DNA of 64,000 bases from Candidatus Doudnabacteria bacterium (lineage in GTDB: Bacteria > Patescibacteriota > Doudnabacteria > UBA920). Of the stretch, positions 1 to 27,341 are shown one piece after another. The stretch is from the NCBI GenBank assembly GCA_016788665.1, contig JAEUSF010000001.1, positions 48,222-112,221 of the forward strand. The letters are read 5' to 3'. The position numbers were made by a program, and so were the translations under genes. Positions within the stretch are counted from its first letter, which is position 1, and the number at the start of each line of letters is the position of its first letter. The notes beneath the pieces were generated by a model. The model ran no database searches. It saw only the letters and a list, made by a program, of their open reading frames with translations, and had not been told where the DNA came from.

Positions 1-1055
1 ATAATATTTTTGCTTTTTAAGGTTTTAGATAAGGTAAATAGAATAAAAAAAGTAAAACTTATGAGACCCGTTAGTCCTGTTTCCGTCCAAAAATTTAAAA
101 AAATATTATGAGGATAGTTGTGGGGTGGAAGAGTTTTGTCAGAAATTAAGTTGTTATATTCTTTTGCATAGCCGCCTAACCCTAAGCCGAATATTGGAGA
201 GCTTTTAATTGCTTTAATTCCGCTTTGCCATAGAGTTATGCGTGAAGAAGCAGACTTTTCCCCAGTAAAAGGAGAGAAGAGTTTTGTTTTTATGCTGGGA
301 GTGGCTAGGGCTATAATTATACCAATTGTTATGACTATAGCTGCGGTTTGGCGGATTTTTTTGTCTCCGGTCCATATGGCATAAAATGTAAGAGCGCCTA
401 CTATTCCTAACCAGCCTGCGCGGGAAAATGAAAATATGAGCCCCGTAATTCCAAAGAGCCAGGCTAGTATTTTTAAATTTGGGAAAGTTCGCGTCTTTGT
501 GCTTAATAATAAATCAGGTATTAAAAGCGCTAAGAGCGGAGCAATAAAAAGTGCGTAAAAATTAGGATGTAGAAAAAAGCTAACCGATCTTTTTAATTCA
601 ATGTCGTTGCCTTGAAAAAGAATTGGCAAGCCAAAGTTTGTAAAGTATTGGAAAATTGCGTACATACCGCATACAGAGACTGTAAAATATATTAAATTTA
701 TAAGTTTTTGTTTTTTTAAATTGTCGGTGAAAATATATTTTCCTATAACAAATAAAGAGACTGGTTGAACAAAAAGCACAAAAAATTGACCTAGGTTTTT
801 TATAGGCTCTCCTTGTACAAAAAGCGAGATTAGTCCAGAAAGCAAAAAAAGACCCACAAAAAAGTTTTCACGAAACAGTTTTTTTACAAACTGAAAAAAC
901 AAACCCAAGGCGTTCTGTTTTAAAAGCTGCAAAAAAAACATTAGCCAGACTGCTAAAACTCCCAGCATTAAAAAGTTGCCAGGAATGCCGAGCAAATTTA
1001 TTTTTATGAAATAAAGTGGTGAGATAAGCAGGCTAAGTAGAAATATATATAGCAT
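1..1055 (-). CDS. O-antigen ligase (Wzy_C)-like polytopic membrane protein, 3' end truncated by window start
   Basis: Not in the ORF track. Manual minus-strand translation from ATG at 1053-1055 (MLYIFLLSLLISPLYFIKINLLGIPGN...FSFSRAGWLG...HPHNIFLNFWTETGLTG...) runs without stop to position 1. It is hydrophobic, with SRAGW and H.HN...E.G motifs typical of Wzy_C/WaaL-family ligases. Confidence 0.5.
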   Translation of the reverse strand, partial: MLYIFLLSLLISPLYFIKINLLGIPGNFLMLGVLAVWLMFFLQLLKQNALGLFFQFVKKLFRENFFVGLFLLSGLISLFVQGEPIKNLGQFFVLFVQPVSLFVIGKYIFTDNLKKQKLINLIYFTVSVCGMYAIFQYFTNFGLPILFQGNDIELKRSVSFFLHPNFYALFIAPLLALLIPDLLLSTKTRTFPNLKILAWLFGITGLIFSFSRAGWLGIVGALTFYAIWTGDKKIRQTAAIVITIGIIIALATPSIKTKLFSPFTGEKSASSRITLWQSGIKAIKSSPIFGLGLGGYAKEYNNLISDKTLPPHNYPHNIFLNFWTETGLTGLISFTFFILFTLSKTLKSKNI

Positions 1056-10160: not shown

Positions 10161-10320
10161 CCTACTACGCACCAGGCTTCGTAGGGCGAGCCTTATGCAA
10201 CAGGTTGTATTTAGTTAACCGCTTGTCCTCCGAAGCTTTACGCGAAGGAGGAAGCTACACGCCCATTGATAGATATTATAGTCGATGTATTACAAAGCAT
10301 CAAGTGTGTGTCTGTAAATA

Positions 10321-26209: not shown

Positions 26210-26231
26210 TGGAGCGGCTAAGGGGAATCGA
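26210..26231 (-). repeat. 22-bp direct repeat of the tRNA-Gly 3' end (pseudo-tRNA fragment / att-like)
   Basis: tggagcggctaaggggaatcga is identical to 26418-26439. Confidence 0.8.
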
Positions 26232-26417
26232 CCCGCCCACGGTGGATTTTCAACTCCCTTTGGTTGTTTCAAATCTCACCTAACGCGGGCCCGTCACTAC
26301 CAAAAACTGCGCTCGCTCGCTTTTGGTTTCCGCCTTTGGCGGAACCGTTCCCGTTCGATTCCTCCAAGCCATTACAAACAAAAAATCCGATTACCGTAAA
26401 GGCAATCAGATTTTTTG

Positions 26418-26611: not shown

Positions 26612-26614
26612 TTG

Positions 26615-26847
26615 TTTAACTTGTTTTTTAAAAGCCTTCTTCCAGCTGCTGTTTTTAAATACAATTCTCTTTTTCTAGCTTCGTCGAATGTATTAAGTTC
26701 TTCAGTATAAACTATTTTAATATTTTCCATTCTTGAAGTGGTTTAAGTATGTCCGTATTTGTGTTCTTTAAGACGTCTTTCCAGATCCTTAGTCATTCCT
26801 TTGTATAGCTTACCATCTTTATCTCTCAATACATATACAGTATACAT
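26615..26847 (-). pseudogene. frameshifted GIY-YIG nuclease gene (second copy of the tRNA-associated cassette)
   Basis: Minus strand from ATG 26845-26847: MYTVYVLRDKDGKLYKGMTKDLERRLKEHKYGHT then stop. Shifted frames continue ..KPLQEWKILK.. and ..VYTEELNTFDEARKRELYLKTAAGRRLLKNKLNK, the same family as 18633-18878. Confidence 0.65.
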
Positions 26848-26862
26848 AGTTATATAGGTATT

Positions 26863-26929
26863 GGCGTCTGCTCCCCGCCCGACTGAACGGCTTCAGTCGT
26901 TCGGGCGGGTACCACTGAGCTACCGCGGC
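26863..26929 (-). repeat. truncated tRNA-Phe 5' duplicate (nt 1-20 + 37-bp GC hairpin + nt 21-31)
   Basis: 26910-26929 equals tRNA-Phe 5' end (taccactgagctaccgcggc). Hairpin cccgcccgactgaacggcttcagtcgttcgggcggg; then ggcgtctgctc matches the next 11 tRNA nt. Confidence 0.75.
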
Positions 26930-27072
26930 TCGTTTGGATTACTATGAGCCCGCACTACGCCTTGATTACATCTAGGCTTCGGCGCGCAGCCTTCGCAATA
27001 ATACAACTTTCGATAAATCTTCAAACTTGGTTTACGCTTTTTGGCGTAAGCCAGCCGAAGCTTTAGCGAAGG

Positions 27073-27149: not shown

Positions 27150-27341
27150 CGTAATAATTTCAATGCCTCAGAGACGAGACTTGTATAAGCAGATTTAATT
27201 TTATGACGCTTGTCCGCTATAGCCACTTAAGCGACAGCGGCGGAAGCTAATTGCCCTAAGTTTATATACTAAATGTTTTTTAAGCCACAAATCTTTTTTC
27301 GCCTGCTGTAATTAGCGTAAAAAACTTGCCCAAATACTATA

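Follow-up and report, generated by a model that had tools for sequence, protein, structure and literature searches.

A tRNA-gene cassette encoding a predicted GIY-YIG mini-nuclease in Candidatus Doudnabacteria, and its probable membership in a homing-type family of mobile ORFs

The tRNA-Phe cassette

The window analysed here, a 64,000-nt stretch of a Candidatus Doudnabacteria contig, carries on its minus strand a compact cassette that runs into the 5' end of an intact tRNA-Phe gene (Table 1). The cassette has three kinds of parts: a reading frame for a GIY-YIG nuclease of ~80 aa, a palindromic GC-rich DNA module and duplicated tRNA sequence. The order given in the initial annotation (tRNA nt 1-20, hairpin, nt 21-31, TATATA, GIY-YIG ORF, intact tRNA-Phe) was recovered in full, except that the hairpin, present as described, measures 36 nt and not 37 nt. 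The hairpin is a clean insertion between nucleotides 20 and 21 of the tRNA copy (between GGTA and GAGC). Its pattern occurs once in the window, compared with no occurrence in 100 shuffles, and the hairpin region folded as DNA gives -20 kcal/mol (z = -3.4). Duplication extends imperfectly into the leader, and the AAACAA before the intact gene is itself the end of the ORF. The spacer ahead of the ORF has no evident Shine-Dalgarno sequence and gave no match in a promoter search; its TATATA may serve as the -10 element of a leaderless mRNA.

Table 1. Cassette features and related remnants in the 64-kb window
Feature	Position	Strand	Remarks
tRNA-Phe locus: leader AAACGA	26935-26930	-	5/6 match to AAACAA before intact tRNA-Phe
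tRNA-Phe nt 1-20, displaced copy	26929-26910	-	20/20 identical to intact gene
Palindromic GC-rich hairpin CCCGCCCGAACGACTGAAGCCGTTCAGTCGGGCGGG	26909-26874	-	36 nt; outer stem CCCGCCCG/CGGGCGGG
tRNA-Phe nt 21-31 copy GAGCAGACGCC	26873-26863	-	Rest of displaced fragment
Short spacer with TATATA (26856-26851)	26862-26848	-	TATATA 3 nt before ATG (26847)
GIY-YIG frame, 81 codons	26847-26602	-	In-frame TAA, codon 35 (26745-26743); TAG 26604-26602 inside tRNA-Phe, 10-nt overlap
Intact tRNA-Phe(GAA)	26611-26537	-	
tRNA-Cys locus: promoter-like site TTGAAA-17-TAAAAT	19016-18988	-	Just upstream of tRNA-Cys fragment
tRNA-Cys nt 1-33 copy	18969-18937	-	33/33 identical; raw numbering, through first anticodon base; repeat reaches 8 nt into leader (18977-18970)
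Double-hairpin module, TCATGCCTACGGCAGA + TCCCCCGTAGGGGGA	18936-18906	-	31 nt; within anticodon
tRNA-Cys nt 34-40, CAAAACC	18905-18899	-	After module
Intact GIY-YIG ORF, 81 aa	18878-18633	-	
Intact tRNA-Cys(GCA)	18627-18553	-	Begins 5 nt past ORF stop codon
ORF-less remnant at tRNA-Val	27256-27151	-	nt 1-12 copy (27256-27245), hairpin TCCGC...GCGGA, CAAGCG, ~60 nt; directly upstream of intact tRNA-Val (27150-27074)
ORF-less remnant at tRNA-Ile	10264-10161	-	nt 1-12 copy (10264-10253), hairpin TCCTCC...GGAGGA, CAAGCG, ~60 nt; directly upstream of intact tRNA-Ile (10160-10084)

The reading frame had been described as broken by a stop after 34 aa and by two frameshifts. The stop is there, as an in-frame TAA at codon 35. 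Direct translation shows no frameshift: one frame spans all 81 codons, is open elsewhere, and has the nonsense codon as its sole lesion. With the stop read as K, the frame matches the Pfam GIY-YIG family (PF01541; E = 5.9e-15; 55.8 bits against a cut-off of 22.6), and match and TAA together bear out the description of a disabled GIY-YIG cassette at tRNA-Phe. An alternative genetic code that reads through codon 35 was rejected, since 24 of the 36 long ORFs in the window end in TAA, more than in any other stop codon. All 23 clade-invariant residues are kept, so the lesion is either young or, possibly, an artefact of assembly. Exact look-ups of two neighbouring proteins and of the Cys-locus protein, made in search of strain variants of the contig with which to check the TAA and find empty alleles, returned no record. 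The best reading is that the Phe copy is a recently inactivated family member in which one change made the TAA, with no other decay.

The predicted nuclease

The protein is a predicted GIY-YIG nuclease of the Slx1/UPF0213-like type that consists of the catalytic domain only. Residues Y5, Y16, G18, R26, H30 and E62 are invariant, and the catalytic Tyr/Tyr/Arg/His/Glu set is conserved. A structure model of high confidence (pLDDT 95.5) matches GIY-YIG structures. The sequence neighbours are the UPF0213 proteins 1ywl and 1zg2 (E = 1.1e-9) and Slx1 (1.8e-5), and the best Foldseek matches are 1zg2 and Slx1, the latter with a TM-score of 0.63-0.73 at 27-33% identity. The cassette protein thus has in common with UPF0213 proteins (EF2693, BH0048) and with the nuclease domain of Slx1 a stand-alone GIY-YIG core; Slx1, however, also has a C-terminal zinc-finger/RING domain and a Slx4 partner, and the 81-aa protein, core only, has neither. 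To our knowledge, UPF0213 proteins have no known function and no reported linkage to tRNA.

Homing enzymes with the same catalytic motif are built differently. In I-TevI and the Seg-type enzymes the catalytic domain is tethered to a C-terminal DNA-binding domain, and SegB has separate DNA-binding regions, whereas the 81-aa cassette protein has no such domain. The NCBIfam model for group I intron endonucleases (TIGR01453) reaches just 19.6-21.6 bits, far under its cut-off of 56, and matches the N-terminal motif only. Searches of PADLOC and PHROGs, for defence and phage families, likewise gave only sub-threshold motif matches.

A sister cassette at tRNA-Cys

A second cassette lies in the window at tRNA-Cys, with an intact ORF; its product scores 54.4 bits against PF01541 (cut-off 22.6), and the annotation of a Candidatus Doudnabacteria MAG contains the identical protein. 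The layout of the two loci had been called identical, and in outline it is; the module, the insertion point and the extent of the fragment (nt 1-33, then 34-40 at tRNA-Cys) differ. Nor should the Phe cassette be thought of as a second copy of the Cys cassette, which is misleading: the two belong to separate clades, carry different palindromic modules at different points in the tRNA, and encode proteins that are 32% identical when aligned. A promoter-like site precedes the tRNA-Cys fragment, and none was found between the Cys ORF and tRNA-Cys. Both displaced fragments in the window are 100% identical to the adjacent tRNA and so give no local sign of foreign origin.

Recurrence of the arrangement across bacteria

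The survey covered 163 independent related loci from Patescibacteria genomes, groundwater and soil metagenomes and Bacteroidota, comprising 83 metagenomic loci of the Phe clade and 80 genome loci of sister clades. At ~130 of the 163 (~80%), the ORF stops at the 5' end of a tRNA gene on the same strand, or runs into it. The tRNA arrangement is present at 73/83 Phe-clade loci, and at 55/80 sister-clade loci a same-strand tRNA lies at most 60 nt from the ORF end or overlaps it; this recurrence strongly upholds the view, first drawn from the two loci of the window, that coincidence is unlikely. These location statistics are also the support for calling the nuclease putatively tRNA-targeting. An upstream tRNA 5' fragment was found at 47/62 loci, compared with 2/62 for a control region, and most loci have such a fragment with a palindromic module breaking it up. 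Once the hairpins are removed, the fragments of 55 loci give unbroken alignments to the tRNA that start at nt 1 and end at nt 15-49 (Cys-type fragments were delimited by local alignments). Mirror-image versions also exist (L038, L068, L071).

Partial tRNA genes in prokaryotes are classically explained by the integration of mobile elements (PMC9897764), and the repeats could in principle be attL/attR scars left by an island with an integrase, since reduced to one ORF, or else duplications by chance or misassembly beside an unrelated pseudogene. We regard this explanation as very improbable. No more than 318-342 nt separate the repeats, an interval filled by the GIY-YIG frame; there is no integrase; the duplicated part is the 5' and not the 3' part of the tRNA; a conserved module sits within the fragment; and the compact layout recurs in ~130 independent assemblies. 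Integrase-borne islands and prophages resemble the cassettes in having a tRNA gene as target, but they are 9-120 kb long and encode a tyrosine integrase, and the part of the tRNA that they duplicate is mostly the 3' end (PMC9897764). The cassette, unlike them, is an integrase-free insert of ~0.3 kb with a 5' duplication and a hairpin module in the partial copy.

Decay of the family is seen at several loci. Premature stops occur in 2/83 and 3/80 copies (~3%), and remnants that lack the ORF are found at the related locus L082 and, within the window, at tRNA-Val and tRNA-Ile (Table 1). The earlier suggestion that the elements decay after insertion is therefore supported by both nonsense copies and ORF-less remnants.

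Palindromic modules

The type of module follows the ORF clade (18/28, 36/52 and 66/83), and the two sequence-specific types, CCTGCC...GGCAGG and CCCGCCCG...CGGGCGGG, are nearly missing from distant flanks (0-3 copies in 320 kb). Most hairpins (71/88) lie at most 150 nt upstream of an ORF, the rest mostly in extra tRNA-like copies. The modules are co-inherited with the nuclease clade and confined to redundant tRNA copies. Over the whole window at gathering thresholds, and in sensitive scans of both cassettes, Rfam reported tRNAs only, with no ribozyme, intron or riboswitch. A group I intron in the tRNA gene was accordingly rejected, only tRNA passing the Rfam threshold and the downstream tRNA being complete alone. 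Because both orientations are common, an oriented RNA motif was also rejected for the Phe-type hairpin.

Several features of the modules suggest a different reading, in which the palindromes themselves are the mobile parts and enter nearby tRNA copies in one orientation or the other. The GIY-YIG protein would serve them as a structure-specific nuclease or 'transposase' that cuts hairpins, once extruded, and the loops of tRNA genes; the ORF would owe most of its spread to local events of duplication and recombination. Modules do occur in both orientations (44 vs 26) and at several sites that are loops or junctions of the tRNA (between nt 9 and 10, at 12-14, between 20 and 21, in the anticodon loop and in the T-loop), with up to two per fragment. 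They are also present inside full-length extra tRNA copies (L042, L051, L124, L155), and a tRNA-Phe fragment at L134 carries, at another position, a module that differs by 1 nt from that of the window. Compensatory changes preserve the stems, although this was seen in 17 hand-picked modules of canonical length, so that its significance is overstated. The resemblance of the nuclease to the structure-specific Slx1 points the same way. Against it, the insertions are clean, with no target-site duplications, no dispersed copies lie outside cassettes, and linkage alone may explain why module and ORF occur together; moreover, we know of no transposition chemistry among GIY-YIG enzymes. On balance this reading appears improbable. 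A MITE-like nature of the module was rejected on similar grounds: inverted termini are present, but the fragments are contiguous without the module, leaving no target-site duplication, and there is one copy in the 64-kb window and 0-3 in the 320 kb of distant flanks.

Short GC-rich hairpins or double hairpins are also known from AT-rich organelle genomes, as the GC clusters of yeast mitochondria and the double-hairpin elements of Allomyces. Insertions of these mini-elements are clean and occur in both orientations, and endonuclease ORFs are found alongside. They are, however, dispersed in intergenic DNA, whereas the cassette modules are confined to redundant tRNA copies beside a nuclease gene.

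Signs of mobility and the case for a host function

One ORF clade occupies at least 17 tRNA species, and pairs of ORFs at 75-85% identity share the same tRNA in only 11/52 cases. Tandem arrays occur at 14/80 loci. The displaced fragment is clearly closer to the tRNA of another genome than to the adjacent tRNA at 13/28 and 14/55 loci, and other Patescibacteria have compact tRNA clusters in which tRNA-Phe carries no cassette (L008). The many tRNA hosts, the arrays, the foreign-type fragments and the empty tRNA-Phe site are indirect support for homing. Scans of IMG/VR found no relatives in viral contigs and thus no candidate vector, a point against the homing-type reading.

The opposite possibility is that the cassette has been domesticated. 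The nuclease would then be co-transcribed with the tRNA and might, for example, guard tRNA genes, which are common integration sites, against invading elements, or take part in repair, with fragment and hairpin serving as a 5' UTR, an operator or an RNA-stabilising element. Such a role would fit the ~97% of ORFs that are intact and the invariance of the catalytic residues, as well as the promoter-like site upstream of the tRNA-Cys fragment, since fragment, ORF and tRNA are probably one transcript and a palindrome between promoter and ORF could act as an operator. The Cys clade is found at tRNA-Cys in 27/28 loci, across many Patescibacteria phyla, a conservation that also favours a host role and could alternatively stem from old vertical inheritance. 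A host feature is harder to reconcile with the patchy distribution, the pseudogenes and ORF-less remnants, the tandem arrays and the fragments of foreign tRNA type. The occurrence of modules in both orientations, and also in tRNA copies downstream of the ORF, argues against a fixed UTR or operator role, and known defence families give no match. We consider domestication unlikely.

A proposed homing-type mechanism

The observations together suggest that the cassettes probably belong to a selfish, homing-type family of mobile ORFs specialised on tRNA genes. Its members would, on the same somewhat better than even confidence, be very small elements (about 340-400 bp) at the 5' side of tRNA genes. 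In the mechanism that we propose, the nuclease would break a tRNA gene, and recombinational repair off an occupied allele would bring in the ORF together with replacement sequence for whatever part of the tRNA was broken. Since that replacement would be copied in with the ORF, an intact tRNA would be rebuilt directly downstream of the ORF, and the old 5' part would stay upstream as a dead fragment. The cassette comes to lie between the tRNA promoter and the tRNA, so that transcription must cross the ORF to reach the tRNA; the reading frame itself often terminates within the tRNA. The module may mark or disrupt the nuclease site in the dead copy, or may be the structured substrate of a structure-specific nuclease; it also breaks up the direct repeat, through which the cassette could otherwise be deleted. 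Two points complicate this scheme. The protein has no DNA-binding domain to account for sequence-specific recognition of tRNA genes, which counts against homing. In addition, the rebuilt tRNA retains the module-site sequence, GGTA followed by GAGC, so a simple immunity in which insertion destroys the target does not apply.

A more aggressive variant is that the cassette is a replacement drive for tRNA genes. The nuclease and its cognate module would inactivate the resident tRNA copy, the module entering a tRNA loop, and the only working tRNA would be brought or rebuilt behind the ORF under the same promoter. With the working tRNA tied to the ORF, a host that shut off or removed the nuclease gene would forfeit an essential tRNA, and the module would be both a weapon and a lock against excision. 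We think this variant rather unlikely.

The logic of the homing-type reading is, by analogy, that of the free-standing homing endonucleases such as SegB of phage T4, combined with that of the mitochondrial mobile ORFs (mORFs), which arrive with a substitute for one end of the gene. SegB acts on a motif conserved among tRNA genes, and when it homes it takes the neighbouring tRNA genes along (PMC2330249). Like the cassette ORF, it is a free-standing GIY-YIG nuclease gene among tRNA genes; its conserved target allows many tRNA genes to be cut, and it spreads by break repair (PMC2330249). It differs in size, its amplified fragment of 687 bp being ~3x as long and its site 27 bp (PMC2330249), compared with 81 aa of catalytic domain only in the cassette. 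SegB is also phage-borne and cuts near tRNA 3' ends, whereas the cassettes are chromosomal and lie at tRNA 5' ends, and it is accompanied by neither the hairpin module nor the displaced tRNA fragment that the cassettes have.

The mORFs bring a replacement gene end that displaces the native one, as in Allomyces atp6 and in Glomus atp6, atp9, cox2 and nad3 (PMC3630166). In both systems an endonuclease ORF (LAGLIDADG or GIY-YIG in the mORFs) sits in a host gene with a replacement gene end, and the native end persists as a displaced, unexpressed duplicate (PMC3630166). An ORF placed between a functional gene and a displaced duplicate end is what is found in the window and family-wide (47/62). The replacement in mORFs is often of foreign type (PMC3630166), and some related loci have foreign-type fragments; the mirror-image loci L038, L068 and L071 match the mORF order exactly. 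The mORFs, however, are found in protein-coding genes of organelles, replace the 3' end and encode larger proteins. The cassettes occur at tRNA genes of bacterial chromosomes, usually with a 5' duplicate, and have a clade-specific palindrome in the displaced piece.

Implications

We found no published description of these cassettes in the literature searched, which included a search for the Bacteroidota palindrome as a literal string, and a 2026 survey of tRNA introns in Patescibacteria makes no mention of them. They are common in Patescibacteria and Bacteroidota, and cultured Bacteroidota carriers include Pedobacter psychrophilus CCM 8644, Gaetbulibacter aestuarii JCM 17455 and Muriicola sp. 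SD30. They also have practical consequences for annotation. The hairpin-bearing tRNA copies confuse tRNA finders, as in the 'tRNA-???' calls of ARAGORN at L030 and L042, and ORF ends are mis-called because the ORFs run into the tRNA.

If the homing-type reading is true, the cassettes would be among the smallest autonomous selfish elements of bacteria, made of an 80-aa nuclease and a palindrome of 20-36 bp and specialised on the most conserved genes available. They would offer a minimal nuclease-plus-palindrome pair for study and would give a role to the large orphan annotation class of UPF0213 or 'GIY-YIG nuclease family protein'. They would also constitute a second, integrase-free route by which partial duplicates of tRNA genes arise.

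The disabled cassette at tRNA-Phe

The tRNA-Phe locus holds one recently disabled member of a cassette family in which an ORF of about 80 aa with a GIY-YIG nuclease domain lies 5' of an intact tRNA gene and is preceded by a 5' fragment of that tRNA, itself interrupted by a palindromic module. The initial annotation described the locus correctly except for the hairpin, which measures 36 rather than 37 nt, two supposed frameshifts, and a layout said to be identical to that at tRNA-Cys. The window has a single hit to the hairpin pattern, against none in 100 shuffles; as DNA the hairpin folds at -20 kcal/mol (z = -3.4). The ORF is a single 81-codon frame (GIY-YIG domain, E = 5.9e-15) without frameshifts; its sole interruption is a TAA at codon 35, in agreement with the reported premature stop after 34 aa. 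TAA is the most frequent stop among the long ORFs of the window (24/36), so the assembled gene is a disabled one. At this codon relatives have K, Q, I, T, R, E, M or V. Because the Phe copy retains all 23 clade-invariant residues, 15 of them beyond the stop, the lesion is either one recent substitution or an error of assembly. Look-ups by exact protein sequence found no strain variants.

The two cassettes of the window share an outline, but their modules are unrelated in sequence and are inserted in the D-loop (Phe) and the anticodon (Cys), and the aligned proteins are only 32% identical. The proposal of a second copy of the Cys cassette is therefore not borne out, while that of a disabled GIY-YIG cassette at tRNA-Phe stands; the cassettes are two lineages within one family rather than a single element in duplicate. 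The protein at the Cys locus matches, with 100% identity, one annotated in the Candidatus Doudnabacteria (Patescibacteria) MAG to which the window belongs.

The surroundings of the Phe locus contain other tRNA pieces. A 13-nt match to the tRNA-Ala(CGC) 5' end, GGGCTCATAGTAA, lies 9 nt upstream of the tRNA-Phe fragment and may be what is left of a lost tRNA-Ala or an earlier cassette, since a tRNA-Ala gene immediately precedes tRNA-Phe in L008, a related locus. Further tRNA debris around the cluster consists of a 22-nt tRNA-Gly(GCC) 3'-end copy, about 200 nt downstream of the intact tRNA-Gly, and a T-arm-like GTTCGATTCC between the two on the opposite strand.

Coordinates of cassette features, in the window unless a related locus is named
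Feature	Position	Strand	Remark
tRNA-Cys nt 1-33 copy	18969-18937	-	raw numbering
Double-hairpin module	18936-18906	-	31 nt
tRNA-Cys nt 34-40 copy	18905-18899	-	
Short spacer	between tRNA-Cys nt 34-40 copy and Cys ORF	-	contains TATAAT
Cys-locus GIY-YIG ORF	18878-18633	-	intact, 81 aa
Intact tRNA-Cys	18627-18553	-	
Six leader bases	directly 5' of tRNA-Phe fragment	-	
tRNA-Phe nt 1-20 copy	26929-26910	-	
GC-rich hairpin	26909-26874	-	36 nt, CCCGCCCGAACGACTGAAGCCGTTCAGTCGGGCGGG
tRNA-Phe nt 21-31 copy	26873-26863	-	
Spacer AATACC + TATATA + ACT	between tRNA-Phe nt 21-31 copy and ATG	-	
Phe ORF start ATG	26847	-	
Phe ORF premature TAA	26745-26743	-	codon 35
Phe ORF final TAG	26604-26602	-	inside tRNA-Phe
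Intact tRNA-Phe(GAA)	26611-26537	-	
tRNA-Ala(CGC) match	26939-26951	-	
tRNA-Gly(GCC) 3'-end copy	26210-26231	-	
T-arm-like sequence	26353-26362	+	
tRNA-Val remnant	27151-27256	-	12-nt 5'-end copy GGGCAATTAGCT, hairpin TCCGC...GCGGA, CAAGCG, no ORF
tRNA-Ile(TAT) remnant	10161-10264	-	GGGCGTGTAGCT, hairpin TCCTCC...GGAGGA, CAAGCG, ~60 nt, intact tRNA
Module-bearing full-length tRNA copies	L042:2734-2828; L051:~2727-2830; L124:~1520-1618; L155:~925-1022		

A family linked to tRNA genes

The cassette ORFs are linked to tRNA genes and share a common anatomy. A pattern-based scan of one genome per species gave 220 relatives of the Cys-type protein, of which 80 loci were examined. At 55 of these the ORF stops within the 5' end of a same-strand tRNA or no more than 60 nt away from it; at 50 the distance is about 20 nt or less, the usual overlaps being 10, 18, 21 or 23 nt. 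The closest 28 loci span many Patescibacteria phyla and lie at tRNA-Cys in all cases but one (27/28); the remoter loci, chiefly from Bacteroidota, lie at tRNA-Arg, Met, Asn, Ser, Lys, Gln, Glu and Leu. At 47/62 loci a repeat of the adjacent tRNA's 5' part is present some 45 nt upstream of the ORF, against 2/62 in a control region. Intact relatives of the disabled Phe ORF number more than 300 (65-77% identity). Among 83 metagenomic loci of this Phe clade, a same-strand tRNA starts -7 to +60 nt from the ORF end in 73, so that the recurrence at tRNA 5' ends in both sets (73/83 and 55/80) bears out the earlier view that the architecture is no coincidence. At least 17 tRNA species serve as hosts (Ala-TGC 19, Thr-TGT 11, Ala-GGC 10, Phe 4, and others). 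A hairpin with outer stem CCCGCCCG/CGGGCGGG lies near the cassette at 71/83 loci, almost always within the upstream tRNA 5' fragment.

Numerous family proteins end in ...GLVAKW, ...GAVAKW, ...GPLA or ...PR, residues encoded by the first bases of the downstream tRNA, whose D-loop TAG serves as stop (L003, L010, L032, L041, L060 and L061, with proteins P0010, P0032, P0041, P0060 and P0061; also Phe-clade proteins). The tRNA host rather than the protein family thus determines the annotated C-termini.

The protein itself consists of the GIY-YIG core alone, in which Tyr, Tyr, Arg, His and Glu are invariant, and lacks the DNA-binding extension that defines homing endonucleases of the I-TevI/Seg type. 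Its nearest sequence neighbours with solved structures are the UPF0213 proteins EF2693 and BH0048 (E = 1e-9), which have no known function, then Slx1, with I-TevI weaker. The best superpositions of the high-confidence predicted structure (pLDDT 95.5) are with BH0048 and the nuclease domain of Slx1 (TM 0.63-0.73, 27-33% identity), the I-TevI catalytic domain reaching TM 0.5. The protein falls far under the cut-off of NCBIfam TIGR01453 and has no significant match in PADLOC or PHROGs, and scans of IMG/VR contigs found no relatives.

Palindromic modules

Once the hairpins are cut out computationally, the fragments align gap-free from tRNA nt 1 to nt 15-49, several with 37-40 matches over 40 positions; the module is thus a clean insertion without target duplication. 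Three module types follow the three ORF clades: two tandem 15-nt hairpins in the Cys clade (18/28 loci, strict pattern), a 20-nt perfect palindrome CCTGCCTGCCGGCAGGCAGG and its expansions in the Bacteroidota clade (36/52), and CCCGCCCG...CGGGCGGG in the Phe clade (66/83). Across 320 kb of flanking sequence lying over 600 nt away from the ORFs, the Bacteroidota module occurs three times and the Phe module never. Phe-type hairpins lie within 150 nt upstream of an ORF in 71 of 88 cases, the rest mostly in extra tRNA or tRNA-like copies. Their most frequent site is GGTA|GAGC, as in the window; others are 9|10, 12-14, the anticodon loop and the T-loop, occasionally with two modules per fragment. 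The nearest relative of the window's Phe module differs by 1 nt and sits at 12|13 of a tRNA-Phe fragment in another genome (L134).

In the Cys-type module two hairpins form a palindrome, the second having the reverse-complement form of the first. Compensatory changes preserve the stems of this module (98% of cells paired; both-sided changes in 32 cells vs 10.9 ± 2.2 in shuffles), an optimistic estimate since the 17 canonical modules were picked by hand. Phe-type modules occur in both orientations (44 vs 26); this, like the overall symmetry, favours a palindromic element at the DNA level over an RNA motif with a fixed orientation. Rfam gives no matching family. The Phe-type module, in the window as in the family hairpins, has three arm pairs ordered P1 P2 P3 ... 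P2' P3' P1', and hence two mutually exclusive folds, each with a one-sided bulge of 4-5 nt.

Turnover and decay

The cassettes turn over and show signs of mobility. Only 11 of 52 Phe-clade ORF pairs at 75-85% identity occur at the same tRNA; one Phe-locus and one Thr-locus ORF are 84% identical. A second GIY-YIG copy lies within 2.5 kb at 14/80 loci, mainly in tandem. In mirror-image loci (L038, L052, L071 (Melioribacteraceae), L068 and L059) the intact tRNA is followed by the ORF and a module-interrupted 3' fragment of the same tRNA; L038, L068 and L071 also show a duplicated 3' flank, of at least 43 nt in L038, where modules occupy the anticodon loop and the T-loop. Four loci (L042, L051, L124, L155) contain a full-length tRNA copy killed by a D-loop module beside an intact copy of the same tRNA. 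ARAGORN calls the copy in L042 'tRNA-???' with a 4-base anticodon, and those in L124 and L155 normal tRNA-Ala or tRNA-Val with shifted coordinates overlapping the hairpin, a pitfall for annotation.

The fragment is clearly closer to another genome's tRNA than to the adjacent one at 13/28 Cys-clade and 14/55 Phe-clade loci; three of these better matches are to another isoacceptor or amino acid. In L019 the functional tRNA differs from the fragment throughout, both acceptor strands included. The tRNA-Cys fragments of L018 and L019, from two Yanofskybacteria, are near-identical to each other and to the window's functional tRNA-Cys, and the functional tRNA-Cys genes of these two loci differ markedly from one another, which bears on whether the fragment or the tRNA travels with the ORF. 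In L134 an ORF and functional tRNA-Phe of one type lie between two module-bearing copies of another, each preceded by about 25 nt of ORF 3' end. Other Patescibacteria have tRNA-Phe without a cassette in compact clusters, such as Arg-Ala-Phe-Gly in L008.

Decay after insertion, as the initial annotation proposed, is seen in premature stops (2/83 and 3/80 copies) and in remnants without an ORF, at L082 and, in the window, upstream of tRNA-Val and tRNA-Ile. The tRNA-Val one, with its 12-nt copy about 100 nt upstream of the intact tRNA-Val, looks like a cassette minus its nuclease gene. Upstream fragments of this kind accompany 4 of the 12 tRNA genes in the window.

Proposed mechanism and significance

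Anatomy, tRNA linkage, the pairing of module type with ORF clade and turnover are all shown, whereas the mode of action is inferred. The cassette most likely works by break and repair. The nuclease would cut a tRNA gene, and repair templated by an occupied allele would bring in the ORF plus tRNA sequence restoring a functional gene immediately 3' of it, leaving the old 5' part stranded upstream. Free-standing homing endonucleases share this working principle: T4 SegB, for instance, recognises a motif conserved among tRNA genes, and adjacent tRNA genes are carried along with it (PMC2330249). The scheme also matches the gene-end replacement of mitochondrial mobile ORFs: these arrive with a new end for the gene, and the native end persists as a duplicate that is not expressed and often differs in origin (PMC3630166). 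A promoter-like site immediately precedes the fragment at the Cys locus, and the stretch from ORF to tRNA has none; transcription of the tRNA therefore probably runs through the ORF. In cases such as the Phe frame, with an ORF that terminates within the tRNA, RNase P cleavage would remove the stop codon.

The module may disrupt the nuclease site in the dead tRNA copy, may be a structured substrate of an Slx1-like enzyme, may break up a direct repeat otherwise able to delete the cassette, or may be a separately mobile insertion. A weak point of the scheme is that the rebuilt tRNA keeps the sequence that contains the module in the dead copy, so simple target-destruction immunity does not explain persistence.

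Partial prokaryotic tRNA genes are known to arise by integrase-mediated integration and CRISPR acquisition (PMC9897764). A 2026 survey of Patescibacteria tRNA genes reports group I introns only (PMC13011429), and a survey of the GIY-YIG superfamily does not mention tRNA linkage (PMC1564403). We found no description of the cassette family in the full-text literature searched, which covers only a minority of subscription journals, so a prior description is possible. We place the family with mobile endonuclease ORFs of the homing type that show gene-end duplication, and its interest lies in the family more than in the Phe pseudogene.
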